Part shown: positions 13,924 through 34,205 of the stretch, piece after piece | How positions within the stretch are numbered: position 1 is the first letter of the stretch | Layout of the letters: each line of letters opens with the position of its first letter | IMG/VR virus record: IMGVR_UViG_3300020294_000012 | Coordinates: 1 to 37,278 of that record | Direction: 5' to 3' (one strand) | Length of the DNA: 37,278 bases | Source of the DNA: a virus | Lineage: Duplodnaviria; Caudoviricetes | Notes under the pieces: model-generated | Database searches by the model: none | What the model saw: the letters and a program-made list of their open reading frames with translations, nothing else | Told to the model about the DNA's origin: nothing | Translations under genes and position numbers: made by a program

Positions 13924-15531
13924 TTAGAATTCCAGGATGATTTTAACGTCTTCTTTTTGTCGTAAATTACGAGCAATCAAAGGTCTATGGTCAATATAAA
14001 CCAAATCCCCTGATCCTTTATTTATCTCTGATTGTGCGAACCCATCTACAAAGTTGGATCCCAGATCAATTTGCTTATTTCCAGTAGGATTAGTTGTAAT
14101 CCCTGAATAAACATTATTAACATATGCCTTAAATCCAGAAGCTTGTCCTTCAATAACAGGACCAGACTCAAAATCATAAAAACGACCAGAAGTTGATACT
14201 CCAATATAATCGGTTTGATCTTGAGTTGAACTATAATTTAAGGATCTATCAGTAAAATACTTTAGTACTTTTGTTGTGCTATCATAAGAAGCAACATATG
14301 CCTTTGCTATTTTAAGATCAGATCTTTTTTGTTCAATAATTTCACCAACTACAGGAGTTCCAGTAACTTTTTCAGTTGCTTGACTACTAGTTGGATTATC
14401 TTTAAAGATAATTGCCTTTAATGATGAAAATTGAGTTTGTGTAAATGGTGTAACACCATCAATTTGAGTTGGATTTTTTACTATACCAACTACAGCAAAT
14501 TTAGTATCTGTTGGAAAATCTTTAGTTGAATCATCAAATCTTGCATAAATTAAAATCTTATCAGTTCCCAATTCTTGATAGATATCATATCCATGACCTC
14601 TGCTTGGGGGAATAATTGGAATTAATTTTGCCGATGATCCTGCTGCAGTATTATTAACAGAATCTAGATCAACCATTCCATAACTATATCCACTTCCACC
14701 TGAAGTAACAGTTACATTTGATATTTGACCAGCAGCATTTATATCAAGTCTTGCTTTAGCACCAGATCCGTCGCCAACAATATTGACTTCTTGATCTGTT
14801 AATGTTGAATAAGAACTACCTGCGTTATCAATGTAAACATGCTTAATTTGATTACTATTTACAGTAGAATCTCCATTTTCTCTAACTGCTCTTATTTGCG
14901 GTTCTGTTGTTGTATCCCAGTCGCTAGGAACGGCTATGTACTCAGTAGAATCAAATTTTATAATATCACTTGGAGAAACTGTAAATAAGTACTTCCAAAT
15001 ATATCCATCACCACTACTACCAGCTTTTGAAGGTTCTAAATCAGTGAACGTTGGTTCGTCTAAAGAAACGTTACCTTTTGGATTTGTGCCTGTTGAACCA
15101 TTACTGATACAAATATAGACTTTATAATCCTCATTCATTACATAATAATCAGCACCATATAATTTACTAGAGCTTTTTATAGGACTTGGATTCTCTATAG
15201 TATAATCATCCCTATAAATTTCATACCTATTACCAGACTTCCAATCAATCCGTCTAATAACTCTTCTTATATTCTTTGCTTGGATTTTTTTACCAAACAT
15301 CATAACATCCCCGACATGGGAGTTACTAGAAAAACTGTCAAGGGGTACTGGAGTTTTACTCACATCATCCCAATTAGCATTTCTACCATATGCAGAGCTT
15401 ACACCACCACCTATAGAGGCTGGTGTTGGATTCGGTAGACCAATAAAAACATAGTAGTTATTGTTTGCAACTGAATCTACAAAATTACTAGCATTAAGAA
15501 TCCTAAATTGGTTTGTTACAATTGCTGGCAT
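13924..15531 (-). CDS. gp8: Baseplate wedge subunit gp8
   Basis: 535 aa, MPAIVTNQFRILNASNFV, RRVIRRIDW, YYVMNEDYKVYICISN, DGYIWKYLFTV, and C-terminal RNLRQKEDVKIILEF. Directly downstream of the gp7-like gene. Confidence 0.88.
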   Translation of the reverse strand: MPAIVTNQFRILNASNFVDSVANNNYYVFIGLPNPTPASIGGGVSSAYGRNANWDDVSKTPVPLDSFSSNSHVGDVMMFGKKIQAKNIRRVIRRIDWKSGNRYEIYRDDYTIENPSPIKSSSKLYGADYYVMNEDYKVYICISNGSTGTNPKGNVSLDEPTFTDLEPSKAGSSGDGYIWKYLFTVSPSDIIKFDSTEYIAVPSDWDTTTEPQIRAVRENGDSTVNSNQIKHVYIDNAGSSYSTLTDQEVNIVGDGSGAKARLDINAAGQISNVTVTSGGSGYSYGMVDLDSVNNTAAGSSAKLIPIIPPSRGHGYDIYQELGTDKILIYARFDDSTKDFPTDTKFAVVGIVKNPTQIDGVTPFTQTQFSSLKAIIFKDNPTSSQATEKVTGTPVVGEIIEQKRSDLKIAKAYVASYDSTTKVLKYFTDRSLNYSSTQDQTDYIGVSTSGRFYDFESGPVIEGQASGFKAYVNNVYSGITTNPTGNKQIDLGSNFVDGFAQSEINKGSGDLVYIDHRPLIARNLRQKEDVKIILEF

Positions 15532-15564: not shown

Positions 15565-18500
15565 TTATATTACTTGAATTCTAAGAGCACCTGTATTACG
15601 CAATCCTTTAACAGAACCTTGTACATTATTTCTCCTTTGAATAGTTGGGAATGTGGACAATCCAGCATCAATTGTTAGACCAGTAACACCAATAGAAATT
15701 GGATTTGCTTCTCTAGTTGTTGCGTCACCATACAATCTACCCCAAGTAATTTTACCTAAAGAAGTTGTTACGCCAGTATTAGAAGGTAAATATTGACCAG
15801 TAGATGCTAATCCAACAACACTTGTTGTACTTAATATATTACATCTAATTTTAGCAATCTTATCACCAGCAACAGTGATTGAATGTACTTTGTAAATATT
15901 GTCCAAGAATGTTGTACCAATACCAACAAGAGAAGTATCGTGACTATCTACTGATGTAACACCATCACCTATTGATGTATCCTTAATTAAAATTGGATAT
16001 CCAGACTGGAGTAAACTTGCTTGCTTACCATCAGTAACATTAAAGAAGAATTCAAGAGCAAGTGGATGTCCACCAGTTCCAACAGCAGTTCCTATACCAG
16101 TAATAATTCCAGTAAAACCTTGACCAAACTTAATTAAGTTAATATCTTCAGTCTTATAAGAAGGAGTCTCAATTATAATTTGAGGTGCTACATCGTATCC
16201 TTGACCAGAATTGGTAATTGTTATTCCCGAAACTGATCCATTTGTAATTACTGCTTCAGCAGTAGCAGTTACCCCTATACTAACAGTAGTAATTCCAGGA
16301 CTTGATACTTTAACAGAAGGTATACTTGTATATCCTTTACCACCATTAGCAATATTGAAGGTTGTAACTTCTGAATTAGCAGTACCAACATTATTACCTA
16401 ATCCTAGAGTAACATCAGCAGGAGCAAAATCTGGTTCTGCTGGCATCATAATAGTATCAACTGCGTCAACAGTAATGTTATATCTCTGATGACTAGGAAG
16501 GCGAAGTGGTCCTTCCTCATAGAAGAAGATTTCAGCATCATCTACAAATATACCATCCTGTACACCAAGACCTATACCTGAAGTAGAACTAACATCAGAT
16601 ATAATTTTTGCTGTAGGATATACACAAGGTTCGATGGACTCTCTATCTTTATTGATTATCTCACCCTGAATAATCTTATCATCTTTTTGTCTAGACCAAT
16701 CAACAGGTTTAAAGTCAATTTCATTAACACCTGGTCCAGTATAAATGTCAGTTTCAACTAAATCTGATGATAAAATCTCCTTGACTGTTCTATCTCTATT
16801 TTGAGATACTGTGTCTAATTCATTATGCAGTCTTATTCTTAAATCATCACCTGGTTTGATTGTTTCTTGAATATCAACTATTTCAACATCAATCCCTCTT
16901 TGACCAAGATAGAAGAATATATCAACCTGATCACCAGTATCTGGTGGTTCAGTAAATGTAAATGTAGCACCACCAGTAAATTGATAAGCAATACCAGGTG
17001 TTTGTAATACACCATTAACAAAGATTACCAATACGGAATTTAAATCAATATCGGCAGATAATACATCAGTCTCATCTTTTTCAAAACTCAATAATTGTCC
17101 ATTAAAGAATAGTGGGAATCTCTTTCTAACATTATTTTGAAGATTTCTTATAGTATCAATGAAATCTATTTCACCGAATTGCCATGCTGAGAAGTAATCA
17201 TTGAATATTTGAACAACTTCCAATTCAAATTCAGTTAAAGGTTCTTGTAACTCAGCAGATGTTACTAGATTAATTGGTTTGAATCTATCACCCACTTTAA
17301 ATGAATGACCCTCTCTTGCTACTTTAAACTCTGAAATTTCAAATAAAGTGGAACCTATACCAACAGTGGTTTTAGCAGAACCTACATTTAAGTTAAGTAG
17401 TAAATTTTCACCAGTATCTGTAGTTTTTCCAATACCCAATCTAGAAACACCAGTAACAGGCATATTTTCATAAACAGGTTGTGAAACTATAATTTCTGGG
17501 TTAATATATCCAGAACCACCATTTTCAATAGTAAATTCTAAAGCACCACCAGTACCTGCAGGTGATTTACCAACATTTACAGTAAATTTCTTAGTTGTAA
17601 GAATACTTTCTACTCCAATAAATTCATTGTAAGTAGGATCAGTTGTTCTTGGATACAAATGATTAGTTGAATATTGATCCTTATTACACTGGAATACTAA
17701 AGATCCAATATCAAACTTAACTCTATTATTCGCCTTTTGAATATTATTAGGTAAAGATGATTCAAATGTATGTGAGGATATATTTGTAGATGGTACAGAA
17801 CTTAGAACTTGTATATCAAATTTATCAGTGGTAGTATTTGATATTTGAACCCACTTATAATTAATAGGATCCTTCCTTCTAGGGTAACTATGCTTAGAGT
17901 TATATGAATCTTGTTCACAAGTAAAGACTATAGAATCTTGATCAATTTTTACATAATCTCCATCACTAAATCCATGAGCAGTAGTTGTAGTAACTGTCAT
18001 AATACCAACTTGAGGATTATATACAGCACTCAAGGTTGATTTAACCTCAGAAGCAGTAAATCCGTGAGCAGCAGATGTAGTAACTGTCATGATTCCTGTC
18101 TTAGGATCATAATCTGCTACATTTGTTGTAAATGGACCACCAACATCAGCAGTTAGATTTTCATACTGTGGAGGAATACCAACATCACATGTTATTTTTT
18201 GAGCAGTTACTGCAGTAATTGCTAAAGCAGTATTATATGCTGGATCAGTTGATCTTGGATAAGAATGATTAGATCCATGATTATCAGCATCACATGTAAA
18301 TGTTAAAGCTTTAGGAGCAATAGTTACTGTATCACTAGTAGTGAAACTATGATTACCTATTGTTAATGTCAATAATCCAGTACCTGGAACATAAACAGCA
18401 TTGTTAACATCTCTCTTAACACCACCCACATCAATAGCATTGCTTATAGCATCGACGAAAGTATGAGTACCAATAGAATTGATAAACTTATGTCTATTTG

Positions 18501-21500
18501 GAGCAACTATAGCAGTAACTACAGCACCTGTTCCACCACCACCGCCAGGACCAACATTAGTCAATAGGGTGTTTTGTGAGGCTGAAATTATAGGTAAGAA
18601 TGTATCATATGCTGGATCAGTTGCTCTTGGATATGGATGAGTACCAATAAAATTATCTTTTGAACACTTGAATATTAAAGAATTCTCTTCAATCTTCAAT
18701 GATTTAGTAGCAGTTACCGCATTTGGTATAGAAGATGCGTAAGTGTGAGTATATCCACCACCAGACTTAACAGCATTTGCTGTAGCACTAACAAATGTGT
18801 GAGCATCTGTGTTTGTTGAAGGTACAGTAGTTAATACCTGTAAAGTAATTGTAGTTGCAGTTACTGATTGTATTGGAATGGCAGTATTGTAATAAGGATC
18901 ATTACCATTTGATCTTGGATATGCCTTTTCAGCAGCAGCACCAGTAGCACCATTATATCCACAACTAAAGGTAATTGACTCTTCTTCTAACCTAACACTT
19001 GTACCAGCCTTTAAACTATGAGCACCAATTTCAAGAACCATCAATCCTGTAGTAGGATCATATGTTGTACCAGTAGTTGGTGTATGTCCAACTAATGGAC
19101 TTGTACCAACATTAACTTCAAACTGAGTAGCAGTAGCATTAGAAACTAATAGGAATTTACCTCTAGCTGGATCTGTAGATCTTGGATATACATGATCTGT
19201 ACTATTATTATCCATAGTACACCTAAATGTAATCGCATTATCAGCAAATTTAACTTGCTCATTATTAATGAATACTCTTGGAGCAAATACTGCTCCAGCA
19301 GTAGCACTAACAAATGTATGAGGATCAGTATTTGTAGAAGGAGTTGTTGACAATACCTTTACAGTAATTGTTTTTTCGACTAAATCTACAGCAATAATAT
19401 CTAAGAATGTATCATATGCTGGATCAGCACCTCCACCAGGATTACCTGTTCCAGATGATCTAGGATATGATTTTTGGGCAGCAGCACCAGTAGCACCACC
19501 AAATCCACAACTAAATGTGATTGAATTTGGTGCTAACTTAATTTTATCGTTGGTAGTCAATGTATGAGTACCAATCGTCAAAACCATATTACCTGTTGTT
19601 GGGTTATATGTAGCATCACTAACATCGTAATTTGAACCAGCACTAACAGTTAAAACACCTGTAGTAGCATTGTAAGAAGCAGTATTAATGTTTAAATCTT
19701 TTGCTGTTTCTATACCATGCTCTTCTGTTGTCAATAATAAATCTCCAGTTTCAGAATTATAATCTGCCTTCAAAGGTGTTAAATTCTGTCCCATAAATCC
19801 ACCAGTGTATGCTGTAATAGCATCTGTACTAGCACTTATAAACTTATGAAGATAATTAATATCAGTAACACCAATAGAAACTGGTTCACGATATCCAGAT
19901 CCTGGTGTCAATTCATCATAGAATGCGTATACATCACCGCCCTTCAGATAAGTATGAGGAATACTATTAATACCAACATTAACTTGGAAACTTCTTTCTG
20001 AAGATACACCAACTAATGGAAGAGATCTTTCATGATCTTGGAATATTGAAGTAGTAACTCCAACATAATTTAAACTAAGAACAGCATTTGGAGTAGCAGA
20101 TACGAATGTATGTGCGTCTGTATTGGTCGGTGTTACACCAAACAATACATTTACCTTAAAGGTATTTGTAGTAACGTCAGAGACGTACATATACCTATCA
20201 TAAGCAGGATCAGTCTTTCTAGGATATGCCTTTTCAGCAGCAGCACCAGTAGCACCATTATATCCACAACTAAAGGTAATTGACTCTTCTTCTAACTTAA
20301 TTGCATCGCCATTATTAAGTCCATGATTAGCAATTGTTATTACCATATCACCTGTCGATGGATTGTATGTTGTACCAGTAGTAGGAGTACCAATCGCATA
20401 GGTTGGGCAGGTAAAGTGTAAACCTTCCAACTTAACAGTTTCTGGACTTTCTAGAGCAAATCCATGAACTTTATTAGTGGTAACAGTTATGATACCAGTT
20501 ACAGCATCATAATGAGCAGTCTCAATACCAGATCCAATAGGACCTATCGAAGAAGCGATACTAACAACACTATCAATAACACCATTAGTTGAATTAGCTA
20601 AAAGTCTAGCACCAACTAAAGGAGCATATCCAACACCAGGAGTTGATCCCATAGAAACTATTAGACCACCTCTTGGTAATTGATTTTGATTAATATCAAA
20701 TTCGGATTGTATTAACTGTCCGTTCTCAGAACTAATACCAGTAAAAGTAACGCTAGAAATTCCTGTAGTATCATTTGCTTCAATTTCATAATTATTACCT
20801 AAATTATTCAATGTTAATGGTGTTTGGAAAACTCCGTTAATGAATACAATTCCATTTCCAACACTAACTCCACTGGAAGTATTAGCACCACCAACAGTCA
20901 ATGTATATGTTCTTCCTATTCCAGTAAATGAATCTGAAATATCATCAAATACCATATTGGTATCATAATTTGATCTTAAGAAAGTTCTTCCGTTATATTC
21001 TGCCTTAACATAAGGTATGTTTGTAGCATTTCTTCTTGCTCTTGTATTACCTTTAGGTGGACTTAAGAACCAAGCAGTACTATCAATAATGTTAAATGAT
21101 CCCCTAAAGATTCTTACTTCAGCATTAGCAGCATGAGATACTTTTGCAGAACCTAAAGATCCTCTTGCTACTAGTACTTCAGGTATATCACCATCAGTTG
21201 AATTTATTGCAGAGAATGGAGTAGCACCTGTTAATGTTGTAAATCCAACTTGCTCCACTTTCATATATTCATTATCAATTTTAATTACATCTAAAGGTTG
21301 TACTGAACTAATACCACTTATAGCAAATTGATCTTTATCGAATGTATTTCCAATACCAATATTATTAGTTAAACTATGCTTTATAGAAGTATACGTAATT
21401 GGTTGCTGAACAATTCCATCAAGTCCAATGACAGTCTTACTCAAAACCTTAGTCATATTAAGTTTATGAGCATTACCAGATCCACTACTGGTTATCTCAA

Positions 21501-24500
21501 TAGGAGTACCATTCTCAATATATTCTTTTCTACTAAAGAGTTGGAAAGAATCAGAATCCTTAACTTTAACAAATACTTTAGATGGCATTGTAGTAACTAA
21601 GTTACTATCAGCATCCAATGTAGCAGCAATACCTACAGAAACTGCTGGTACACCAATGAATGTAGATCCTGCAGCATATTCTATTTCTTCATTGGTATTA
21701 AAGAAATGATTTGGTATACTAAACGTAGTACCAGCACCAGCACTTGAAATAATTCGAGTACTATCTGAGGGATTAAACTTCTTACTGTATACTGGAATTC
21801 CTTGATATGTTAGATTGAAATTAACTTTATTACCTCTTGTACCGTTTATTCCATCGTAAGATGATAATAAAAGATCTGAAGTTACTGGACCAAACTGTAA
21901 TGGAGTTGGTTCATTGACAAAATCGTTAAATGTATATAATACTTCATTGAATGATTGAACTTCTACTAAACCAGTAACAGAGGAATCTGGATAAAATATT
22001 AGATTTATATCATTGGATGTAGTTTCTGATCCAAATGTTCCTAATCCAGTCTGACTTCCAACATGTGGGTATTGAACAGTAACTGCATCATTATTTTGAT
22101 CATGTAAAAGAATTGGTTGATGTATAGCAAATTCTGATCCATAACTAACTTTTACAATTGAACGTACAGTACTGTCAATATCCCTGTCTATAGACGCTAC
22201 AGTTACCCCTACACCAAGTGTAGTTGAATTATATGTTGATTCATATCTAGCACTTCTTTCTGCCCCTGCTGGTTGTCCTTCTAGGTTAAATCTGTATGTA
22301 CCGATACCTGCTGTAGTGGTTCCTAAACCAACAATATTAGCACTTACTATTAAATCAGAATTTCTTTCATTAATACAATCAAACTTAATTACTCCACTAT
22401 CATAACTAGCGGTCAAGAGTCCAACAGTTCCTTTATCAACTTGACTGAATGATACTTGAGATAAATCAGCATATAATTGTGATATTGATACCTCTTGTCC
22501 TTGAACATTAACTAATGCCTCAGTATAATCCAATTCTCCAGTAACATTATCCTTTGAAACAACATTTGCGTAAAAAGCATTACAATCAGTTTCAGAAAAT
22601 TCTCTAATAGTTGTAGTAGTAACTCCAATAGGAATAGCAGGTCTTCCTATTTCACTACCAACAAATCCAAGTTGATCAGTACTTGCTAATGTTTGAACTT
22701 GAATTGGAGCAAGAGTTGGTTGATTTGTAGGACTAGTAGGATCTACGATTCTAAGTTTAGCAGTACTTGCATCAACAACATTTAGAATTTCAGTCCTATC
22801 AGCAACACCTGGTCCTGATAATGTAGTTCCTGCCCCAATAATAGGGATGGTATTGCCATTAATATCTTTAATTTCAATACCATTTACTCTCTTCTTAGAT
22901 GTTAGGTCAAAATCATTAGTTGTTAAAGTATCTCCAGAAATACTACCACTAAATGTGGTTCTACCTACAGCAACAGAAACATTTGTACCAACTAACTCAA
23001 CAGATCCAATATCTTTGACACCAGTTGAAGCAACATCAGTATTGAATGAGGTTTTTATTATTTTAATATCATGATCCTTATTAAATGCCTCAGTTGGAGT
23101 AAATTGTAGAGTCTTTCTATTAAAGAAATCTACATCTGCTTCAAAGTTTCCTAATCTAATACCAGTAAAGTCGGTTGTTTTTTCTAATAAGTAAGCATTA
23201 TCAGTTGATGATAAAACAATTAGATCACTAACCTGAACATCAAAACTATCTGGATCAACTATCTGTACAAAATAACGAGCATAATTCGCATTTATTTCTT
23301 CAATTTCAGTAAATAAATCCTGACTTCCCTTACTAGAGAATCTACCACTAATATCATCATGTAATAGTACTCTATTAGTTTTACACTTAGTATAATCAGT
23401 TAATTTTACATTTTGGAAATCAATAGTTTTAGAATTTCTACCTCTAGGATAAAAATCAATACCAAGATCAAAATTATTAACAGTATCAACTCTTCTCTCA
23501 TTTACAACATCAAGAACCAAAGTTGGTGTTGTAAAGAATGTACTACCGATACCAACATTTATATTTGTTGTTAAAACAGTATCAGCAAAGTTTTTAAGAC
23601 CTGAAGGATGTACTAACCTATTAACTGGATCTACAAAATCTTCCCAAGTCTTTTCACTCTGAATTGAATATGAAAGGTTTTGGAAATAGTCATTGTTTGG
23701 TATTACTTGGAAATCTTCACTTAACTTACCAATATTATCATTCCATCCAAGATTTTGTATACTTGAGAAATCTACGTTAAATTTTGCAGGACTTGAAATT
23801 ACATCAATAACAGTAGCAGATGTTCCAGAACTTTCTCCTGTTATTCTGTCACCAGTAGTTAAACTATCAAGACCTTGTATTTTAATAAAATCTTCTCTAG
23901 ATTCTTTTACAATAATATCTTTGATTACGAATGAATTTGCCTCTTTTACAAGAAGATTTTCACCTAAAGCAAAATCAGATCTCTTTTGGTTTGTTTCAAA
24001 TGTAGGATAGTTATTACGATTTACAACATTTGCATAACCAGATTGATATGTCTTAGCAATTCCTGGATTTGTGGTTAATCCTACCAAATCAAATTCTAGA
24101 ACATCTGGGTTTGCTGATGAATAAGAAGTAACTTTAAAGAACCTATAATCATAATTTGATGAATTATAACCATCACCAGAAATAGTAGTAACTCCAACAG
24201 AAGATGATTGCTGCGTTCCAATGCCAGCAGGATCCTCTCCAAAGAGTTGAATGCCTTCAACAAATATTTCATCATTAACATCAAATGGAGGTGTTACATA
24301 CCCATTAATAGGGGTTTCCATAACACATCTGACAAGAGTGCCATTAGTCGTCATTGAAACGATACCAATTCCATTTGAATTGTTAATAGCAATTACCCTA
24401 TGATTTACAGAATTTAATCCTTTAATAGGTGCTATAACATTTACATCAGATATTGATTGATAAGGAGCAAAACATTCTAATGAAGTGGTATCAACAACTT

Positions 24501-27500
24501 CTTTACTTTCTGGATTAAACAGTATTAAATCTGGTGGATTTAGATAGTCTGTGCCACCATCAATAATAGTAATATTCTCAATTACATCCAAATCATCAAC
24601 TCTAACGATTGGTGGTATATAAGCTTCTGGTCTTAATGTCTTATCAGAAGAATACTCAAACCCAATATCAATTATTCTAAGATTATTAACTCTTCCTATA
24701 GAAGTTGATAAAGCAACAATATTAGCATTTTCACCATCAACACTAGTAACTGAAGTAAATCCAGGTACACTCTTATAACTAAATCCTTCAGAGATTAATT
24801 TAACACTCTTTATAGCACCGCTTACTGTTTTAGATTTACTAGAATATTCTAATACATCACACTGATCAGATTCATATGTTAAAACTTCTGGTACAGATCT
24901 AGGGGAAATTTTAAATGTTTCATTATCAACATCAAAAACTCTAAATTCTCCAGAATATGAACTATCAACAAAGGTAATTTCTGAGTAATTAAGAACATCA
25001 GTATCTGCTGTGCTGATATATCCACCCTTTTCTAAAGCATAGTATAATTTAGATGGAACTGCTGTAGAGAATCCAATTGATACTGCAGCACCAACATTTG
25101 GACTCGATAAAAATGTTCCTACACCAACTGTTCCTACACCACTAATTGTGAATGAACCTGCTATATTTTCTGATGGATCATATTTTGTAGCATTTTTAAA
25201 TTCGTTTTTAAATTCTTTATCATAGAAGAATTTGAGTTCATATCCAGGTAAAGAAGTTGAACCCATACCAAAGGTTAAATTAGCATTCTTAACTACTCTT
25301 ATTGGTGGATTAATTAATGATATACTATGCCCAGATCCAGCAGAATCAAATTTAACTATTTGAGGAGCGTCTGATAGAGAATCATTTAAAGTTTCACATA
25401 GATTAATTTTATTTGAATCAATTACATTAACATAATAAGAACTAGTTACTCCAGTAATAGGATCAGAACTTTCATAGAAAACTTTATCTCCAGTTTTTAA
25501 TCCATGATCAGATATTGTTATTTGATTCTTTATAATATCAACATCAGATCCTTCAAATCCAAGTGAATTTATCAACAATTTAGCATGTGTTTCATTAACA
25601 CTGACTGTTAGTGGGGCAGTTGATCCTAATCCAACTACAGTATTTGGATTTACTTCCAAATCAATAATGTCACCAACATGTAGTCCATGTGTTGTAGTAT
25701 TTGCTAATCCTATTTGAGTAGTAACAGTTGATATTATCCTATCAATATTACCAGTCAACTTAGTATAATCAGACTTAATCAAATATTGATAATTATCATC
25801 AGCATTACCATAGAAGAATAAACCACTCTCACTTTTTGCAGCACCTACATTAGTAGCAAATCCAATATTATTTGGACCTTTATCAATAACATATAGTTCA
25901 GAAACAGCACTTGATTGATCTGGAATATAGAATTGGTTTGATGCGTCATCATCCCTACTTACCAATAAAGAAGTAGCAGCTAATGGTTTTGAAAACTTAA
26001 CTCGTTGTCCTGATGTAAATGGGTGATTTGGTAAGTAAATACTTTGTTGAGCAATATTTACAGACTTTGTTGTTTCACCTACAACATAATCAACAACAGA
26101 TCCACTAGTAGTACCCAATCCAACTGCTTGTCTTGTATTGAGGTAAACTAAATCATCTAATCTAGATTCAAAATAATCAGAATTGACTGGGATACTAATA
26201 CGATTATTCAATACATCTATACTTGATCCAAATGTATGAGCTATACCAGTATTAAATCTTTGAACTCTTATTATCTTTTCTACTTCATATAAGTTTAATA
26301 CTTTAAGAACTTCATCACCAACTCTTAAAGATCCTCCAATAGCAACTGTATTTGGTATCTTATTAACATAAATGTCCTCAGTTACTCCACCTGAATTATT
26401 ATTCAGAGTCATTGATTTTGCTAATCCAATCCTATCAGTGCTAACACCAACTTTAAATGAATTGTTAAGTTCATAATTTGATGTACTTAACCCTGAAACT
26501 AATACAGTATCCTGATCATTTAATTCTATTTTTGGAATATAATGTGCTGTTACTTCATTAGCACTATTCCAAATAAATGTAGCATTTTCAAATGTAGTTA
26601 ATTGGGTCTTAATATTGGAAACACCAATACCAATTATTCTATCAACTTGTCCTCTAGCACCACTACCGTTAGTACCATCATTATTAAATGTAGTGAAATC
26701 TCCTACCTTATAACCTTTACCACCATCTAAAACTTGGAAACTATCAACAATACCTTTAGTTACAGACTCTACAACAGATTTTTGACTAATAATTTCATTT
26801 GATTCTACTATAAAATCATTATCCGCAAATCTATCATTAACTTTATATGGTAAAGTATTTCTAGAAAGAGTTGAACTATTAAAGTCAAAAGATTGATTTA
26901 AGTAATCATTTTCTGAAATAAATGGTAAACGATAAGATTTTCCAATGAAATATGGATATATTGGATTATTAATAGTATCTAAGGTAGCAAAGTACGCATA
27001 AACACCATTAGGAAATTCAGGAGTTTTACCGAATCTACCATTATACTCATCTAAATCACCACTACCGTCAAATACATAATCTTTAATAAAGAAACCACTT
27101 TCTTCATTTGGTCTATCAAACCAATTAGTATCAATACTATATCCAGATTCTAATCGTTTTACTTGACTAATATCATCAGGATCAGAATATCCAAACCCAC
27201 CATATATTGGATTTCCATCATATGCCCATCCAATCAAAGGAGAATGAGTTCCTATTCCAGTAGTTGCGTCTACACCAGAATCGTTAAAAGATTCTCTCAA
27301 CTTCTGATAGTAACTATTAACACCATAATATAAGTCGTTATCACCTACTGGTTCTAAATGTACATCATTTTCTCTCTTAATATTGTCAATTTCCAATTCT
27401 CTTACTCTAGCGTTTAGTAAACCATTTTTTCCTCTAGGTTCTACGTAAACATTAGTTCCTGTACTAGAATATCCTATTCCTGGATTAATAACAATAATAT

Positions 27501-30500
27501 CCTGCAATCTACCATCAGATATTATTGGTTTTAATATAGCACCACTACCTTCTGTAGCATCTATTTTTAGAATAGGTAGTGAATTATATTGATCACCTTT
27601 ATTTTTGACTATAACATCTATTAATCTTCCACGTTCTACTACAGTATCTACTTCAGCATCTTTACCATTTTGAATATCAACAGATGGTGAAGACTTATGG
27701 TTAATGATAGTAGATCCATAATTACATCCTTGATCATAAGTATAGGTTCCAATAATCTCACCAGTAACTATAGGAGTAAGTTTACCATCAAATGATCCAC
27801 CAATTTCATTATCAAAAATAGCATTTACTGTTATTTCAATATCAGGATACTTAAATATCTGATATCCAGATCCTTGAGATATTAAATTAATATATTTTCC
27901 TCTTTGAATATCAACTTTTGTTGTTGCTCCAATTCCAGCATTTGTTAACCTGAAAGAATCATTATCAATTTTTAACGCATGATAGAAATTTGTGGTTGAT
28001 GTTATACCTGTGGATACAGTTAAACCTTCAATTGAGGTTCCATCAGTCAAATATTCAACAATATCACCAGTTCTGAACCCATGATTCTTAAAGTTTATAG
28101 TATCAAAAGAAGTTGAAATACCTGAAGATGGTACTGGTAATTTCCTATATTGAAAATCTTGACCAGGATTCAATACTTTAACCGATCTTAAAGTATTCTT
28201 GGATTCTGTTCTAAATTTATGGAAACCAGCAGCAGTGGTTGCTGTAGAAAATCCTATTGTATTAATACCAGTTACACCAAATAAGGCATCATCAGGTCTT
28301 TTGAATAGATAAATTCTAGTTGGATTAATAACTCTAACAAAATATGGTGCTCCATTTACAAGATATTCTGTTACATTTGTACTTGCTTCTTTAAATGCAG
28401 TTATTCCAATTGGATTTTGTCCATTATTGTTGTAATATACCTTTTGACCATTTACAAAATTATGTTTACCTGTAAATGTAATAGTCTCTTCTTGTATATC
28501 CAATCCACCATTGAAGAATATATCTCTACTATTAAACTCAACTTCTCTAAATCTAGGTCCAGTAACAGGTTCTAAGAAACAATCTCTACCATTACCACCT
28601 GTTAGTGTTACTGATAATACTTTAGAAACATCAAAATCCTGTTCCTCTACTAATATTTCTTCTACAGAACCCTTAATAATTGGTTCAACTAAAGCAGTTG
28701 TACCTATACCAACAATTCCTTCAACTACAACTTTTGGTGGGTTGGCAATATCATACCCAGTTCCCGAATTATATACCTCAGTTTGTTCAATTGTACCGTA
28801 AGAAACGGTATCTACTGAAGTATTAGTTCTTATTTGAGTACCATCTATTAATAATCCAATATTTTTTGCTGGTTTTTCATTCTTTGTTGTAATCTTTAAA
28901 TCCTGACTAAGAGGAAACTTTCTTAAAATTGGATTTTTTACGATTTTTTTATTATATTGATCTGCAATAGTAAAGGTATGTGTTGCTATTATCGCAGCAG
29001 ATGGTTGTGCCTGTTGAGTAGGTGAACTGATAAGTATTGACTGATCTGTTTCTATAGCATTAATACTAGAATATAATTTTATTGACTTCTTATCATCCAA
29101 TACTCTAACAAAATATGATTCACCTTCTGTTAAACCACTAAATGCCTTTGAAGAGTCTGATGTTGTATAAACTACAGAATCTCCAGTAAAGAATTTAGTT
29201 TCAGCAGCAAATTTAACTGTAGATATGCCAGCAATTGTATCTGCTGAAAGACCTGTTCCTTGCTGTGAAGAACTAACAGGTTCTACATCAATTTGTGTGC
29301 TTGGTAATGAGTTTGAAGCAACATAACCAAACTTATCACCATCAACATATACGTTTAAAATATCAGATAAAACATTTCCAGTTCCATCTACATTCTGATA
29401 ACTATCAGATAAAGCAATTCCAACTTGATTGGCAGAATTATAAGTTGTTTTCTGTAGATTTCTCCTTATATCATAATCACCAAGAGGACTTGGTTCATTG
29501 GGTATAAAGTTAATACCATCAGCAGTAAATGAATAATCAGTATCTATTCTCTTAACTATACCACCACCAACTCTTTTATTTGATTTTCTACGTGTTATAT
29601 CAAAACTATCACCAATTTTTAAACTAGACCTATCAATCTTACTTAATAAGACAAAAGTGTTATTAGAAACACTACCAGACACTTGATATCTAGAACTAGT
29701 ATTATAAATCCAAGAGTTTGTAAAAATTTGCTTATATGTTTGAGTTGTTTCTGGATTTGATACAATCTCTCCAACATTTTTTACTAATATTTCCTGACCT
29801 TCGGTGACAAGTGAAACATCTCCATCTGGAACAAATTTTGAAATTACACCAGTAATCCTTAAATCAACCCTCTTAGATAAATCACCATCTTCATAACCAA
29901 ATATAGTTTCATTTGATCTTACATCTGTAGCAATTCCTATATTATTGGTTATACCACTACAACCAAAGAATTGATTAACTGTCTTAGATTCATAAGCAAC
30001 TGTTTGTTTATTTGAATCTACATCCTCTACAATAAAAGTACCACTTTGATCAAATCCAATAGTTGTATCAACTGGAACTATTGTAGAGTCTTTTTCAACT
30101 TCTTCTAATACCTTTGATTTACCTGGTATAGTAAAGATACCTTGTATAAGATCTCTATCACTAAATCCTACAAATAATGAGACTTTATAGTATGTTTTAT
30201 TATCTCTTGTTATAATTTCTACTTCCGATACTGAAGCATTGGTTTCTAAATCTGTCGATTTAAATATTGTTTGACCAACTAACTTAGAAGGATCACCACT
30301 GATACCTTCTGCTACAATAACTTCCCTACGAATATATTCAGCACTTGATGGTTTTATTAAACGTTCTTCTAAATCTATTACATTTGCTTCTACACCAAAT
30401 AATACTTTAAATAAAATCTTTATAGATTCTGCAATTCCCTTTGATTGATAGAATGATCTAGCAGTTTTAATAAAGTTACCAACATCTAAACCTTCTGCAA

Positions 30501-31068
30501 AAGTATTATCTTCTAGTCCAGGTAGGAAAGTTTTCTTTAATTTTTTATAAAATTCCTGTAAGAATAGAACACTTAAGTTAGTAACTGTAGATGCAGTTGT
30601 ATGAGAAGCAGCATTAGTATCTTCAAATAATAAATTTTCTCTATTTACAGAATCAAGTGAAGTTGATATACCAACTCTATATCCAGTTATACCACTAAAC
30701 CCACGAATACATCCTGTAAATGTAGTATCAGTCTTTCCAGTATATGTGATAATTTCATTATCAATCTTTATAAGACCATATGAAGCAGGAAATCCTTTAG
30801 TAGAATCTACGGTAATTGTAGTTTCTGTAATTGAAACATCAGAAGTTAATGTAGTTTTACCTGTAATAACTTCTGGAACTAAATTATCAACCTTGATATA
30901 ACGATCAAGATTACTTAATAGGTCTTGACTAGATCCTTGATATTCTTGAGAAATATAATACTGTCTAAAAAACTCAACAGCTTGAGGGAAATCAGCAACC
31001 AGATACTCTGGTAACTGACTTTCTATGATCTTATTGACCTGAACTCTCTTCTCGAATTCTAAACTCAT
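15565..31068 (-). CDS. gp7: Giant baseplate wedge initiator gp7-like protein with many accessory repeat domains
   Basis: 5167-aa uninterrupted ORF between gp6 and gp8. N-terminal IIESQLPEYL...FFRQYYISQE and FYQSKGIAESIKILFKVLFG, and central DYFQNLSYSIQSE..W...VNRLVHPSGLKNF are wedge-protein motifs. Also repeated HG(F/L)xTGDxVxY modules and a YHYH-like segment. Confidence 0.82.
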   Translation of the reverse strand: MSLEFEKRVQVNKIIESQLPEYLVADFPQAVEFFRQYYISQEYQGSSQDLLSNLDRYIKVDNLVPEVITGKTTLTSDVSITETTITVDSTKGFPASYGLIKIDNEIITYTGKTDTTFTGCIRGFSGITGYRVGISTSLDSVNRENLLFEDTNAASHTTASTVTNLSVLFLQEFYKKLKKTFLPGLEDNTFAEGLDVGNFIKTARSFYQSKGIAESIKILFKVLFGVEANVIDLEERLIKPSSAEYIRREVIVAEGISGDPSKLVGQTIFKSTDLETNASVSEVEIITRDNKTYYKVSLFVGFSDRDLIQGIFTIPGKSKVLEEVEKDSTIVPVDTTIGFDQSGTFIVEDVDSNKQTVAYESKTVNQFFGCSGITNNIGIATDVRSNETIFGYEDGDLSKRVDLRITGVISKFVPDGDVSLVTEGQEILVKNVGEIVSNPETTQTYKQIFTNSWIYNTSSRYQVSGSVSNNTFVLLSKIDRSSLKIGDSFDITRRKSNKRVGGGIVKRIDTDYSFTADGINFIPNEPSPLGDYDIRRNLQKTTYNSANQVGIALSDSYQNVDGTGNVLSDILNVYVDGDKFGYVASNSLPSTQIDVEPVSSSQQGTGLSADTIAGISTVKFAAETKFFTGDSVVYTTSDSSKAFSGLTEGESYFVRVLDDKKSIKLYSSINAIETDQSILISSPTQQAQPSAAIIATHTFTIADQYNKKIVKNPILRKFPLSQDLKITTKNEKPAKNIGLLIDGTQIRTNTSVDTVSYGTIEQTEVYNSGTGYDIANPPKVVVEGIVGIGTTALVEPIIKGSVEEILVEEQDFDVSKVLSVTLTGGNGRDCFLEPVTGPRFREVEFNSRDIFFNGGLDIQEETITFTGKHNFVNGQKVYYNNNGQNPIGITAFKEASTNVTEYLVNGAPYFVRVINPTRIYLFKRPDDALFGVTGINTIGFSTATTAAGFHKFRTESKNTLRSVKVLNPGQDFQYRKLPVPSSGISTSFDTINFKNHGFRTGDIVEYLTDGTSIEGLTVSTGITSTTNFYHALKIDNDSFRLTNAGIGATTKVDIQRGKYINLISQGSGYQIFKYPDIEITVNAIFDNEIGGSFDGKLTPIVTGEIIGTYTYDQGCNYGSTIINHKSSPSVDIQNGKDAEVDTVVERGRLIDVIVKNKGDQYNSLPILKIDATEGSGAILKPIISDGRLQDIIVINPGIGYSSTGTNVYVEPRGKNGLLNARVRELEIDNIKRENDVHLEPVGDNDLYYGVNSYYQKLRESFNDSGVDATTGIGTHSPLIGWAYDGNPIYGGFGYSDPDDISQVKRLESGYSIDTNWFDRPNEESGFFIKDYVFDGSGDLDEYNGRFGKTPEFPNGVYAYFATLDTINNPIYPYFIGKSYRLPFISENDYLNQSFDFNSSTLSRNTLPYKVNDRFADNDFIVESNEIISQKSVVESVTKGIVDSFQVLDGGKGYKVGDFTTFNNDGTNGSGARGQVDRIIGIGVSNIKTQLTTFENATFIWNSANEVTAHYIPKIELNDQDTVLVSGLSTSNYELNNSFKVGVSTDRIGLAKSMTLNNNSGGVTEDIYVNKIPNTVAIGGSLRVGDEVLKVLNLYEVEKIIRVQRFNTGIAHTFGSSIDVLNNRISIPVNSDYFESRLDDLVYLNTRQAVGLGTTSGSVVDYVVGETTKSVNIAQQSIYLPNHPFTSGQRVKFSKPLAATSLLVSRDDDASNQFYIPDQSSAVSELYVIDKGPNNIGFATNVGAAKSESGLFFYGNADDNYQYLIKSDYTKLTGNIDRIISTVTTQIGLANTTTHGLHVGDIIDLEVNPNTVVGLGSTAPLTVSVNETHAKLLINSLGFEGSDVDIIKNQITISDHGLKTGDKVFYESSDPITGVTSSYYVNVIDSNKINLCETLNDSLSDAPQIVKFDSAGSGHSISLINPPIRVVKNANLTFGMGSTSLPGYELKFFYDKEFKNEFKNATKYDPSENIAGSFTISGVGTVGVGTFLSSPNVGAAVSIGFSTAVPSKLYYALEKGGYISTADTDVLNYSEITFVDSSYSGEFRVFDVDNETFKISPRSVPEVLTYESDQCDVLEYSSKSKTVSGAIKSVKLISEGFSYKSVPGFTSVTSVDGENANIVALSTSIGRVNNLRIIDIGFEYSSDKTLRPEAYIPPIVRVDDLDVIENITIIDGGTDYLNPPDLILFNPESKEVVDTTSLECFAPYQSISDVNVIAPIKGLNSVNHRVIAINNSNGIGIVSMTTNGTLVRCVMETPINGYVTPPFDVNDEIFVEGIQLFGEDPAGIGTQQSSSVGVTTISGDGYNSSNYDYRFFKVTSYSSANPDVLEFDLVGLTTNPGIAKTYQSGYANVVNRNNYPTFETNQKRSDFALGENLLVKEANSFVIKDIIVKESREDFIKIQGLDSLTTGDRITGESSGTSATVIDVISSPAKFNVDFSSIQNLGWNDNIGKLSEDFQVIPNNDYFQNLSYSIQSEKTWEDFVDPVNRLVHPSGLKNFADTVLTTNINVGIGSTFFTTPTLVLDVVNERRVDTVNNFDLGIDFYPRGRNSKTIDFQNVKLTDYTKCKTNRVLLHDDISGRFSSKGSQDLFTEIEEINANYARYFVQIVDPDSFDVQVSDLIVLSSTDNAYLLEKTTDFTGIRLGNFEADVDFFNRKTLQFTPTEAFNKDHDIKIIKTSFNTDVASTGVKDIGSVELVGTNVSVAVGRTTFSGSISGDTLTTNDFDLTSKKRVNGIEIKDINGNTIPIIGAGTTLSGPGVADRTEILNVVDASTAKLRIVDPTSPTNQPTLAPIQVQTLASTDQLGFVGSEIGRPAIPIGVTTTTIREFSETDCNAFYANVVSKDNVTGELDYTEALVNVQGQEVSISQLYADLSQVSFSQVDKGTVGLLTASYDSGVIKFDCINERNSDLIVSANIVGLGTTTAGIGTYRFNLEGQPAGAERSARYESTYNSTTLGVGVTVASIDRDIDSTVRSIVKVSYGSEFAIHQPILLHDQNNDAVTVQYPHVGSQTGLGTFGSETTSNDINLIFYPDSSVTGLVEVQSFNEVLYTFNDFVNEPTPLQFGPVTSDLLLSSYDGINGTRGNKVNFNLTYQGIPVYSKKFNPSDSTRIISSAGAGTTFSIPNHFFNTNEEIEYAAGSTFIGVPAVSVGIAATLDADSNLVTTMPSKVFVKVKDSDSFQLFSRKEYIENGTPIEITSSGSGNAHKLNMTKVLSKTVIGLDGIVQQPITYTSIKHSLTNNIGIGNTFDKDQFAISGISSVQPLDVIKIDNEYMKVEQVGFTTLTGATPFSAINSTDGDIPEVLVARGSLGSAKVSHAANAEVRIFRGSFNIIDSTAWFLSPPKGNTRARRNATNIPYVKAEYNGRTFLRSNYDTNMVFDDISDSFTGIGRTYTLTVGGANTSSGVSVGNGIVFINGVFQTPLTLNNLGNNYEIEANDTTGISSVTFTGISSENGQLIQSEFDINQNQLPRGGLIVSMGSTPGVGYAPLVGARLLANSTNGVIDSVVSIASSIGPIGSGIETAHYDAVTGIITVTTNKVHGFALESPETVKLEGLHFTCPTYAIGTPTTGTTYNPSTGDMVITIANHGLNNGDAIKLEEESITFSCGYNGATGAAAEKAYPRKTDPAYDRYMYVSDVTTNTFKVNVLFGVTPTNTDAHTFVSATPNAVLSLNYVGVTTSIFQDHERSLPLVGVSSERSFQVNVGINSIPHTYLKGGDVYAFYDELTPGSGYREPVSIGVTDINYLHKFISASTDAITAYTGGFMGQNLTPLKADYNSETGDLLLTTEEHGIETAKDLNINTASYNATTGVLTVSAGSNYDVSDATYNPTTGNMVLTIGTHTLTTNDKIKLAPNSITFSCGFGGATGAAAQKSYPRSSGTGNPGGGADPAYDTFLDIIAVDLVEKTITVKVLSTTPSTNTDPHTFVSATAGAVFAPRVFINNEQVKFADNAITFRCTMDNNSTDHVYPRSTDPARGKFLLVSNATATQFEVNVGTSPLVGHTPTTGTTYDPTTGLMVLEIGAHSLKAGTSVRLEEESITFSCGYNGATGAAAEKAYPRSNGNDPYYNTAIPIQSVTATTITLQVLTTVPSTNTDAHTFVSATANAVKSGGGYTHTYASSIPNAVTATKSLKIEENSLIFKCSKDNFIGTHPYPRATDPAYDTFLPIISASQNTLLTNVGPGGGGGTGAVVTAIVAPNRHKFINSIGTHTFVDAISNAIDVGGVKRDVNNAVYVPGTGLLTLTIGNHSFTTSDTVTIAPKALTFTCDADNHGSNHSYPRSTDPAYNTALAITAVTAQKITCDVGIPPQYENLTADVGGPFTTNVADYDPKTGIMTVTTSAAHGFTASEVKSTLSAVYNPQVGIMTVTTTTAHGFSDGDYVKIDQDSIVFTCEQDSYNSKHSYPRRKDPINYKWVQISNTTTDKFDIQVLSSVPSTNISSHTFESSLPNNIQKANNRVKFDIGSLVFQCNKDQYSTNHLYPRTTDPTYNEFIGVESILTTKKFTVNVGKSPAGTGGALEFTIENGGSGYINPEIIVSQPVYENMPVTGVSRLGIGKTTDTGENLLLNLNVGSAKTTVGIGSTLFEISEFKVAREGHSFKVGDRFKPINLVTSAELQEPLTEFELEVVQIFNDYFSAWQFGEIDFIDTIRNLQNNVRKRFPLFFNGQLLSFEKDETDVLSADIDLNSVLVIFVNGVLQTPGIAYQFTGGATFTFTEPPDTGDQVDIFFYLGQRGIDVEIVDIQETIKPGDDLRIRLHNELDTVSQNRDRTVKEILSSDLVETDIYTGPGVNEIDFKPVDWSRQKDDKIIQGEIINKDRESIEPCVYPTAKIISDVSSTSGIGLGVQDGIFVDDAEIFFYEEGPLRLPSHQRYNITVDAVDTIMMPAEPDFAPADVTLGLGNNVGTANSEVTTFNIANGGKGYTSIPSVKVSSPGITTVSIGVTATAEAVITNGSVSGITITNSGQGYDVAPQIIIETPSYKTEDINLIKFGQGFTGIITGIGTAVGTGGHPLALEFFFNVTDGKQASLLQSGYPILIKDTSIGDGVTSVDSHDTSLVGIGTTFLDNIYKVHSITVAGDKIAKIRCNILSTTSVVGLASTGQYLPSNTGVTTSLGKITWGRLYGDATTREANPISIGVTGLTIDAGLSTFPTIQRRNNVQGSVKGLRNTGALRIQVI
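18917..18991. repeat. Perfect 75-bp direct repeat, copy 1 (copy 2 at 20222-20296)
   Basis: GGATATGCCTTTTCAGCAGCAGCACCAGTAGCACCATTATATCCACAACTAAAGGTAATTGACTCTTCTTCTAAC read identically at both sites. Encodes LEEESITFSCGYNGATGAAAEKAYP. Confidence 0.92.
20222..20296. repeat. Perfect 75-bp direct repeat, copy 2
   Basis: Identical to 18917-18991. A degenerate third copy lies near 19463-19525. Confidence 0.92.
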
Positions 31069-31070
31069 AT

Positions 31071-33005
31071 CTATTTCCTTTCTAGATCTCCATTAGAATA
31101 ACTTGAACTGTAATAATCTCTTGTGAACACAACACCTGAAACATCTTCACCCGAAGCAATTACGTCTTTGAACATATTTATCGAACTATTTGAAACGTCA
31201 AAACTTAGGTATAAATCCTTTAACCCAACAACATCATTAGATTCAGGGAATGCCTGTATCTCAATTAAGTTATTGGCAGCTACTGTAGATGTAATATTAA
31301 TTGTATTGATGATTATTTCACCTTTGGTATAATCAACTGTACCAACATCTTTTGCTACAATCTTCAATTCCTCCTTATCATCTTTAGAAACAATACAAAT
31401 AACACCTTTTCCACTTGAATCCAATTTACCTTTATCGTCTGTATTTGGTATATCAGTAAAATATACCAATTTTGACCAACCAGATATTTTAAATCCAGTA
31501 CTCTTTATATTATACCCTGCCTGATTGATATGGAATTGATTACCAAAACATAACTCATATTGTGCAAATTGATTTAAAAGTGCCTTTAAATCTCTTCTAA
31601 TTTTTACTTTCGTTATATTAGAAGTTATTGCTTCATTAACTCTATCTATTAATTGGTTTATTTTACTAAATTTAAACCTACCACCAAACTTATTAATATC
31701 AACTGTATTAGAATATGATAGTAATGAACTTAGAATAGTAGTCTTCAAACCAGTAACATCACTAATTGCTGATGTGTTGTAGTAAACATTTGAATCAATT
31801 TCCACATATAGTATCTTAAGGTCAACAATATCAGAATCAATACCAGCAATAGAGTAATTCTTTAATTTATTTTTTATTTGTTGTTTATCAAAATCAGATA
31901 CAAATGTTCCATTTTTTGGTTTAATACTAATCTTAACCTTTCCAAATTGTGGTGGATCTAATTCTTCACCACCAACAACAGCAATTGACTCTGTTGAAGG
32001 ATAAATTGACTTTATTATAGCCTCATAATCTCTGGGTGTAACCGCCCTGTACTGTGCGGAATATAGTCTAGGAGCCAAATACTTAATAGACGATAAATCT
32101 TCGATCTCCGTGCCACTTGAGGCACTCTGAGTGGTTGTTACGTTAACAACTGTGGATGGTCTAACTAATCCACCATTATCAGTTCTACTAAATGTTCCTT
32201 GGAAATCGAAGGAAGAAGCACCATTACTTTCTGACCCATTAGTAATCAAATATTCTATAGTAATTTTTTGCCCAGTTTCTATGGGTTTTCCAAAATAACC
32301 ATCACCAAATAATACCTCAACTCTTTCATCTTGAACTTCCTGTATTAAAAAGATCTTAGAATCTTTGTTCAAATTGAGTATATTATCAACTTTTGAATAT
32401 TCTGATCCAAGAGTATTATTACTATCAGATACATTAACAATAATTGTTGAAGTATCGATGCTTGAATTATCTAATATGTATTTTGAATCAACTGAAGTAT
32501 TTGCTACAAAACTATTTTTAACATATGTACCTTGAAAAACCTCTAAATCAAAGTCTGCCACTCTATCACCAGCAGAATTAGTGTAAACTCTCTGTGTCAA
32601 TGGTCTTAAAGTGGAAAATCTATAAGAAGTATCGTTTGCAGTACCTATACAGACCAATCCAGCATTTAAAGTTATTTGAGATATTTCAGCATTGGTATCT
32701 ACAATTTTAACTTGGAAATTTATTCTTGCCTTTGCTGCAGTTTTTGATCTTGGAACGTACCCAATGTTCCTTGCCAGCGAAACTACGTTTTCTCTTATGG
32801 TTGCTGAGTCTAAAAATACCTCATTTGTTGCCAAATTAGCGTTAAATGAGTTAATATACGTATTATATGCTAAAGTATCGATTAAAACCGAAAAATTAGA
32901 CCCTTCAAAGTCAAAATCAGTGAAATTAGAGTTTGATCTAAGGTATTTTTTAATTTCTGCCTTAATTTGAGTGAAATCAAGACTTGTAAATTGGGTATAT
33001 GGCAT
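31071..33005 (-). CDS. gp6: Baseplate wedge subunit gp6
   Basis: LDFTQIKAEIKKYLRSNSNFTDFDFEGSNFSVLIDTLAYNTYINSF, EVFLDSATIRENVVSLARNIGYVPRS, FGDG.FG and APRLYSAQYRAVTPRDY are T4 gp6 signatures. 644 aa. Confidence 0.95.
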   Translation of the reverse strand: MPYTQFTSLDFTQIKAEIKKYLRSNSNFTDFDFEGSNFSVLIDTLAYNTYINSFNANLATNEVFLDSATIRENVVSLARNIGYVPRSKTAAKARINFQVKIVDTNAEISQITLNAGLVCIGTANDTSYRFSTLRPLTQRVYTNSAGDRVADFDLEVFQGTYVKNSFVANTSVDSKYILDNSSIDTSTIIVNVSDSNNTLGSEYSKVDNILNLNKDSKIFLIQEVQDERVEVLFGDGYFGKPIETGQKITIEYLITNGSESNGASSFDFQGTFSRTDNGGLVRPSTVVNVTTTQSASSGTEIEDLSSIKYLAPRLYSAQYRAVTPRDYEAIIKSIYPSTESIAVVGGEELDPPQFGKVKISIKPKNGTFVSDFDKQQIKNKLKNYSIAGIDSDIVDLKILYVEIDSNVYYNTSAISDVTGLKTTILSSLLSYSNTVDINKFGGRFKFSKINQLIDRVNEAITSNITKVKIRRDLKALLNQFAQYELCFGNQFHINQAGYNIKSTGFKISGWSKLVYFTDIPNTDDKGKLDSSGKGVICIVSKDDKEELKIVAKDVGTVDYTKGEIIINTINITSTVAANNLIEIQAFPESNDVVGLKDLYLSFDVSNSSINMFKDVIASGEDVSGVVFTRDYYSSSYSNGDLERK

Positions 33006-33450: not shown

Positions 33451-34065
33451 CTATTCTTTAAAACTATGTGAATTTAGTGGAAATTCCTCAACCCAAGAGG
33501 TAATTATGTATTTTGAACCGCCAATTGGAGGGTTTCCACGATGTGTCCAAGGCCAACTACAAGGAAAAATCAAGAATTTTCCCCTTTTTGGGGTAATTTT
33601 TTCTTGTTGGTACAAAAATTCTGTCTCACCACCTTCAAAATTATCATTTAGATATATCATTACTACTAATTGCCTAAAAGAAGAGTATGAATCTTTACCA
33701 TCACCATCATAATGCCATTGGTGAAACCCTTCAGATGGATTAGTTTTTTGTATCTTACATGTTTTATGCTCAAACTCCCTTGTTTTTAGCACATCATACT
33801 TAGACATATAATGTTGCAGTGCTTCACATGATAGACGATTCCAATCATTATATACTTGGAACATGATATTATCATGAATATGGTTATGAACATAGACTGA
33901 GCTATCTTTCATCTGTAGGGGATTCAATCTAGGTTGTACTAAACCCCCAGTTTCAGTCATTTGTTCAAAGTAATCAATATATTGCTCACAATCTATATTA
34001 CATTGATACTCGGATATAAAATTACCATGATCCGTATGAGCATTAATAAAGGGAGATTGATTCAT
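33451..34065 (-). CDS. 2OG-Fe(II) oxygenase (prolyl-4-hydroxylase-like)
   Basis: HxD motif (WHYD), LVVMIYLND..EGGETEF, distal His (WTHRG) and KYIITSW: double-stranded beta-helix oxygenase pattern. Confidence 0.88.
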   Translation of the reverse strand: MNQSPFINAHTDHGNFISEYQCNIDCEQYIDYFEQMTETGGLVQPRLNPLQMKDSSVYVHNHIHDNIMFQVYNDWNRLSCEALQHYMSKYDVLKTREFEHKTCKIQKTNPSEGFHQWHYDGDGKDSYSSFRQLVVMIYLNDNFEGGETEFLYQQEKITPKRGKFLIFPCSWPWTHRGNPPIGGSKYIITSWVEEFPLNSHSFKE

Positions 34066-34205
34066 CTCCCTTGCCCTCTAGTCCTTTTCTTTGCTTTATT
34101 TCGTGAAGTAGCGGAATACTTTGTATGTTTACCTTGTCCTTGACGAGACTTTTTCGGTATTGCCTCTACGAATACATTTCCGTTGATACCAGTTCTTGTT
34201 GCCAT
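34062..34205 (-). CDS. Small highly basic hypothetical protein (47 aa; not in ORF track)
   Basis: Hand-translated: MATRTGINGNVFVEAIPKKSRQGQGKHTKYSATSRNKAKKRTRGQGR*. Its stop overlaps the next ATG (ATGA) and it fills the gap exactly. Confidence 0.75.
   Translation of the reverse strand: MATRTGINGNVFVEAIPKKSRQGQGKHTKYSATSRNKAKKRTRGQGR

Follow-up and report, generated by a model that had tools for sequence, protein, structure and literature searches.

The baseplate protein gp7 of a cyanophage contains nine copies of a module of ~105 amino acids (aa), and several of these copies lie inside the loops of other copies. The protein is encoded on a 37,278-nucleotide stretch from IMG/VR record IMGVR_UViG_3300020294_000012 (positions 1 to 37,278), which is called the window hereafter. 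That the nested architecture is real at the level of the sequence is close to certain. Taken as a whole, it is probable that barrel modules nest in loops of their own copies within an optional part of gp7, that they are gained and lost by recombination at conserved motifs, and that they build a branched appendage likely contacting the host surface.

Nine nested modules in one protein

The motifs of the nest span gp7 residues 3520-4472 (window ~20511-17655; all features given here lie on the minus strand). We cut the module into five segments, namely an H-x-F strand (a), a Y..TG hairpin (b), an F-x-C strand (c), a YPR segment (d) and closing strands (e). The window holds nine b and nine c segments, and for both segments position-specific scores placed nine copies cleanly above background. 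An inspection of the letters alone (the original prediction) had noticed nine Y..TG hairpins, nine F-x-C and eight YPR motifs, all of which were recovered at the positions claimed. It had also proposed that the halves pair like balanced brackets. Read as a string of segment tokens, the nest has two nested parses and zero tandem-only parses, so a simple tandem array was rejected, and 0 of 20000 shuffled strings could be parsed. Training of the token profiles used these same regions, and the filtering rules were set by hand. Because orthologues with an intact C exist (locus L045), we chose the parse A[B]A, C[D[E]D[F]D]C, H[G]H[I]H over the other nested one.

Two segment orders occur. Modules A, B, D, E, F and I follow the order b-c-d-e-a, and C, G and H follow the circularly permuted order a-b-c-d-e. 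The original prediction had described G as a free-standing, circularly permuted copy. G is indeed permuted, but so are C and H, and G does not stand free: it sits inside H, since the H-x-F strand of H itself starts at residue 4193, ahead of G. Recursive domain insertion has been defined as the arrangement A1-B1-C-B2-A2 (PMC13114784), and in gp7 D is both a guest (of C) and a host (of E and F). With D at depth 2 and E and F at depth 3, the window reaches a maximum of three levels.

Module A, a divergent base copy, consists of an N-part (20404-20541, residues 3510-3555, identified by motifs and a hidden Markov model, HMM) and a C-part (19921-20067). Between them, after F-x-C, lies the complete module B (20068-20403, HMM positions 4-101 of 102). 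The permuted module C is divided into an N-part (19702-19860) and a C-part (18553-18708) that enclose D, which is itself present as a first piece (19633-19701), a second piece (19096-19278) and a last strand (18709-18759). The complete modules E (19279-19632) and F (18760-19095) separate these three pieces. The first strand of H (18475-18501) had been overlooked in the original prediction and was found by segment scores, the parse and the HMM. It is followed by the complete permuted copy G (18169-18474, permuted HMM 2-103 of 104), the second piece of H (18052-18168), the complete module I (17734-18051, HMM 6-101 of 102) and the C-part of H (17563-17733).

The HMMs were made from 97 and 50 uninterrupted copies at other loci, with the window and L007 excluded; the permuted HMM includes intact orthologous C and G copies. 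Without excision, A, C, D and H gave fragmented HMM matches. Once their guests were excised in silico, the rejoined modules spanned almost the entire HMM (A 3-97/102, D 2-101/102, C 1-101/104 and H 3-104/104), so that excision restores full-length domains as predicted. By the HMMs and by natural empty alleles alike, the hosts are discontinuous domains that become whole again when the guest is removed.

Module turnover among orthologous alleles

We compared the nest at 165 loci, where both anchors were found in 129 regions, 114 of them distinct. The regions span 149-1222 aa, and their length increases by 106.4 aa per module (r 0.997, first 61 regions). Module number per region ranges from 0 to 11 and flips between close relatives. 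The clean module-sized indels foreseen for orthologous gp7 alleles were seen at three sites: B is missing in L018, L045 and L109 (a 110-111 aa gap directly after F-x-C), E in L091 (117 aa) and G in L020 and L018 (102-103 aa). They were also seen in 13 hand-picked pairs, in each of which the length difference equals one module or two; identity is 84-95% in 12 of these pairs. The gp7 regions of P-SSM2 and AG-345-E02 are 95% identical and their difference is a 215-aa cassette of two levels; P-SSM2-type alleles have four nesting levels. Across orthologues, guests were found at a|b, b|c, c|d, d|e and e|a, which is every neighboring segment pair. L034, L035 and L041 also hold a guest between d and e.

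At the base of the nest, three loops of a scaffold made of GxGY beta-repeats receive A, C and H as optional inserts (window ~20600-17450; L173:3001-4800). Read by eye, gp7 of S-SRM01, Bellamy and S-CAM9 has no module between the anchors and consists there of the GxGY scaffold only, while other gp7 proteins carry A alone, C alone, or C plus H[I]. Since A, C and H are optional, the nest would be an accessory appendage and not part of the wedge core. The GxGY scaffold loops are empty in S-SRM01, and counting the scaffold would add one nesting level. At the same site, gp7 of S-T4 (L170) and ACG-2014f (L169) has a number of A-type barrels that lack YPR; judged by eye, those of S-T4 appear to be nested.

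We next compared the modules at the DNA level. A cassette, K, inserted after F-x-C, occupies host J in P-SSM2, L101 and L105 and host B in L118, L120 and L125, with the same linkers. The host halves of L125 are 94-100% identical to B as it occurs, without a guest, in L126/L130; their identity to host J is 42-61%. Its K has 84% identity to the K in J (P-SSM2, L101, L105), and the identity switches at the F-x-C and YPR codons. The K copies of L125 and L118 are 93% identical to one another, and the host halves of L118 are 81-84% identical to those of L126/L130. In a tree, the four K copies form one clade (support 0.989), and the guest that L101 itself has in B is unrelated to K (42-69%). Since K resides in B and in J in other alleles, guests can serve as hosts. 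The D[F] linkers were also found in host B of L142, with only moderate DNA identity.

Exchange within one gene is suggested by a 75-nucleotide (nt) tract in B (20222-20296) that is identical to a tract in F (18917-18991) and likely reflects gene conversion. The tract spans c-d, its flanks are ~47-76% identical, and the chance of equal synonymous codons, given equal residues, is 10^-6.7. The orthologous tract in 12 other loci is 76-92% identical. Exact internal repeats of at least 30 nt occur in 14 of 64 long regions, a raw count without a null expectation. In sequencing run X3 the tract forms one collapsed unitig with a depth of 914, compared to 89-528 around it. Repeats of 75 nt break short-read assemblies, and the nest could thus have been an artifact of misassembly. 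The chance of this is practically nil, and misassembly was rejected: the nest belongs to one open frame that continues for 5167 aa, P-SSM2, a cultured isolate, contains a related nest that is deeper still, and positions 17500-20600 recur in L086 (100% identical), L087 (99.97%) and L085 (98.9%). The single-cell record AG-345-F15 has the same module arrangement over the part covered.

Judging from these DNA mosaics, ectopic recombination at the conserved motifs has probably spread the modules. The genes uvsX and uvsY are present in P-SSM2 (PMC1079782). A second route, duplication of whole host-plus-guest branches, likely operates as well. Branch duplication and deletion could even be the sole source of the nest, with no guest-only transfer between hosts. 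Slot-specific clades, and the clustering of guests that share a type of loop (D, I, J), fit this explanation, as does H[G] in L034, L035 and L041, where both D[F] linkers reappear with their roles reversed, which looks like the result of circularly permuting a cassette of two modules. However, L125 and L118 are of the host B type on both sides, with just the guest and a few linker codons of the J[K] type, and the 75-nt tract shared by B and F points to exchange between non-orthologous copies. We therefore find it improbable that branch duplication acted alone; the two routes are not mutually exclusive.

Several results weigh against frequent transfer by recombination and against a firm history of the nest. 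In a tree of 142 modules from 20 regions most modules group by slot, and hence vertical descent dominates and hops would be rare; K in two hosts is the sole clear case of a cassette hop. The token parse was free of errors in 54 of the 114 distinct regions, the remainder having 1-6 errors, and the direction of change, gain or loss, is unfixed for most pairs. The automatic parser mislabels some regions. We give no counts of gains and losses because both the parser labels and the length-based labels of the flank tree (a quick tree of 90 of the 114 regions) contain errors, for example at L113. Contigs of four sequencing runs contained no clean module-skipping joint; the joints listed were short-sided and likely came from other phages.

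These observations suggest how the nest could change. Its basis is the five segments, their two circularly permuted orders and the guests found across orthologues between all neighboring segments. If both orders give one barrel with close ends, a guest would fit into a loop and the halves of the host would re-pair around it. A new junction type would start as a rare non-homologous event, since unequal crossover in a tandem array cannot create junctions of nested order. Homology-driven spread into loops, as originally predicted, thus seems to apply to the spread of an existing junction, as the DNA mosaics support, but would not account for its first origin. Two crossovers, one in each of the conserved motifs beside a filled loop, would copy the guest together with its linkers into the corresponding loop of another copy, and exchange with an empty allele would delete the guest. 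Recursion follows because the recipient copy can already be a guest. Unbalanced products may misfold and be purged, leaving the balanced brackets.

Predicted fold and candidate role

Structure prediction suggests that the module is a small beta-barrel. Module F modeled alone was almost all beta, with a predicted local distance difference test score (pLDDT) of 95.6 and a predicted template modeling score (pTM) of 0.87. Guests measure 102-118 aa, inside the 50-200 aa set for compact guests in recursive insertion (PMC13114784), and are, by prediction, self-folding. The model of module F was searched in VIA and Foldseek. The best VIA match was residues 258-336 of the phi92 endosialidase (4hiz; Z 6.3, root-mean-square deviation 2.4, 74 aligned), followed by a head-tail chain of phage FCWL1, the FCCH domain of UBA1 (218-293, Z 6.0) and then reductase-type barrels. 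Foldseek also ranked 4hiz first, at an E-value of 0.12. There was no match for module F in VIA at Z ≥ 8, nor in Foldseek against PDB at E ≤ 0.001, and a sequence search of solved structures matched none (best E 0.38). Among Pfam families, E1_FCCH (PF16190) weakly matched 6 of 51 copies (best E 2.2e-6), with 14.8-17.1 bits for stretches of the window against a gathering score of 29.5, and End_beta_barrel (PF12195) weakly matched 5 of 51 (best E 9e-4, gathering score 35). The atlas neighbors of the module are unnamed clusters, the closest named one being E1_FCCH at 0.92. These scores suggest a fold and not a family.

Nesting probably extends to the folded protein as well. A model of 1072 aa had a mean pLDDT of 76.4 and a pTM of 0.43, and in it the split pieces of C and D reached ~82-86 (block means), which fits re-paired halves without naming their partners. 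Compared with viral models in Foldseek, it matched cyanophage gp7 and fibre proteins at low TM-scores and was uninformative on pairing. It is also conceivable that the sequence has a nested history but that homologous halves pair with nearer neighbors in the folded protein, giving partial domain swapping or interdigitation. This has a parallel in Si3, an insertion in the cyanobacterial RNA polymerase that is partly domain-swapped and in which some recursively inserted HABAS domains are described as exchanging elements (PMC11515920). Moreover, as all halves are homologous, other pairings would pass the HMM test, which is blind to partners; bracket-matched pairing would then be a conjecture from the sequence, and the 1072-aa model is of low confidence at the A halves (~60-64), at the first strand of H (~58) and overall (pTM 0.43). 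All of this detracts from a nested fold. On the other hand, guests are gained and lost as whole units while hosts are conserved, C is contiguous in natural alleles, and module F is modeled with confidence on its own. We therefore think swapping improbable.

The residues of the module are strongly constrained. In 248 distinct copies, taken as profile-chosen hits, conservation is 93-100% at the positions of Cys, His, Pro, Gly and Tyr. Profile positions 10, 15, 24, 43, 55, 59 and 92 (in F, window ~18766-19089) include a near-invariant Cys, two His, Pro and Asp on four segments; Cys is conserved in ~100% of the copies, the last His in 99%, the first His in 93% and Asp in 85%. This set could be a metal site or a cross-link that closes only when split halves re-pair.

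What the appendage does is more tentative. The barrels may bind surface sugars or lengthen the reach of the baseplate. Their position in the virion, their variability and the weak endosialidase match leave host-surface binding a little short of an even chance. The fold matches themselves (best Foldseek E 0.12, Z 6.3) are weak and silent on function, which counts against such a role, and the loss of modules from whole lineages fits a neutral passenger equally well as an adhesin. The modules could indeed be tolerated passengers, shuffled by recombination under selection for folding only and with no role in host binding, as their number of 0-11 at one site, flipping among close relatives, would allow. 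Yet open frames are maintained across ~3 kb, the conserved residues persist over the profile-chosen copies, and the best fold match, though weak, is to a domain of a receptor-degrading phage tailspike. We hold passengers to be rather unlikely. Going further, the module might be a self-homing cassette without an enzyme of its own that uses phage recombination within and between genomes; wild cyanophage populations would then make receptor-binding appendages shaped like trees, and the pattern of their branches would tune the host range. This is an unlikely scenario on present evidence. No nuclease, splicing or transposase family was among the Pfam families listed for the 51 copies (25 of 27 families).

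Genomic context and comparison with known systems

The open reading frame (ORF) at 15565-31068 encodes the 5167-aa gp7. Both of its halves match phrog_2885 (E 0), and it lies between gp6 (31071-33005; PF21379, phrog_219) and gp8 (13924-15531; PF09215, E 1.4e-12; phrog_438), both baseplate wedge genes. Family profile and position thus agree on a gp7 baseplate wedge initiator. The order gp6-gp7-gp8 is the same in P-SSM2, and the window covers a cluster of late structural genes from a T4-like, P-SSM2-like cyanomyovirus. Among ORFs over 300 aa in the window, the module is confined to the nest region of gp7. A kinship with other H-G-L repeats in gp7 has weak support (18 columns, probability 69%). 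A YHYH domain (PF14240, E 6.6e-22) was found at gp7 residues 1274-1364 (window ~27250-26980). Upstream of gp6, small genes at 33451-35663 presumably encode two 2OG-Fe(II) oxygenase-like proteins and one glycosyltransferase-like protein, judged by eye from their motifs.

A tblastn search with the nest region matched 371 of 50,697 phage records, every one named Synechococcus, Cyanophage, Prochlorococcus or Marine; the best record was the single-cell AG-345-F15 (70%). The profile of 51 copies matched 741 representative proteins at E ≤ 0.001. Among the matches listed, 141 of 150 had at least one out-of-cycle junction, a count that token noise may inflate, and 6 of 150 were pure tandem arrays. Other nests occur in gp7-like proteins of P-SSM4, P-SSM3 and P-RSM6 and in one MED4-213 fibre protein. 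The giant gp7-like proteins of P-RSM6 (L168) and P-SSM4 (L004) have four to five closing H-x-F strands consecutively, which suggests nests deeper than that of the window. In a protein of 4764 aa (P0001), an entire four-module nest is repeated six times, alternating with helical C-x-R-D repeats, as in whole-branch duplication.

Among known folds, the endosialidase barrel and E1 FCCH are inserted domains themselves, and the endosialidase barrel binds sialic acid. Compared to the endosialidase barrel (PF12195; phi92, K1F) and E1 FCCH (PF16190), the gp7 module is larger (~105 residues versus 75-80), has a near-invariant Cys, His and Y-P-R, and scores under family level. Among phage attachment proteins, the T-even tail fibres are a further parallel, and their segments are exchanged in linear order. 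The gp7 nest resembles their loci in that fragments are exchanged at conserved motifs (PMC1079782) but differs from them in placing a whole domain inside another copy, which produces a tree.

Part of this gene family had been seen before. P-SSM2 gp7 (orf111) and P-SSM4 orf080 belong to the same family as the gp7 of the window, and Sullivan 2005 reported repeat motifs of 15-51 aa in orf111 and interpreted the giant genes as fibre-like fusions to gp7 (PMC1079782). Nesting and module indels are not described in section 9 of that account (PMC1079782). Open-access searches, without supplements, found no paper describing the gp7 nest. The architecture, originally put forward as undescribed, thus appears to be so for gp7, but recursive self-insertion as such has been published for Si3.

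Module turnover accounts for part of the size variation among giant cyanophage virion proteins, and nested modules are a hard case for domain annotation. A small barrel that accepts guests in each inter-segment loop, in two permuted forms, would be useful for protein design.

The closest parallel is Si3 of the RNA polymerase beta' subunit (RpoC2), where HABAS/sandwich-barrel hybrid motifs are recursively inserted to six levels; deep recursive insertion is called rare there, with Si3 as the worked case (PMC13114784). Both systems place a small beta domain within its own copies, and in both there are hosts with more than one guest (PMC13114784, PMC11515920). Si3 is deeper, with six levels against three in the window and four in P-SSM2-type alleles. 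We liken the gp7 module to Si3 in architecture and do not assign it to HABAS, as it matches endosialidase, FCCH and reductase-type barrels. Unlike Si3, the gp7 nest sits in a protein of the virion, is built from two circular permutants, varies between alleles with 84-95% identity, and carries DNA mosaics. As the divergence between empty and filled alleles is 5-16% and their DNA contains breakpoints, the origin and spread of nested proteins can be tested in natural sequences and in cultured P-SSM2. Recursive self-insertion is thus already known from Si3, and what gp7 adds is allele-level evidence of how a nest changes.

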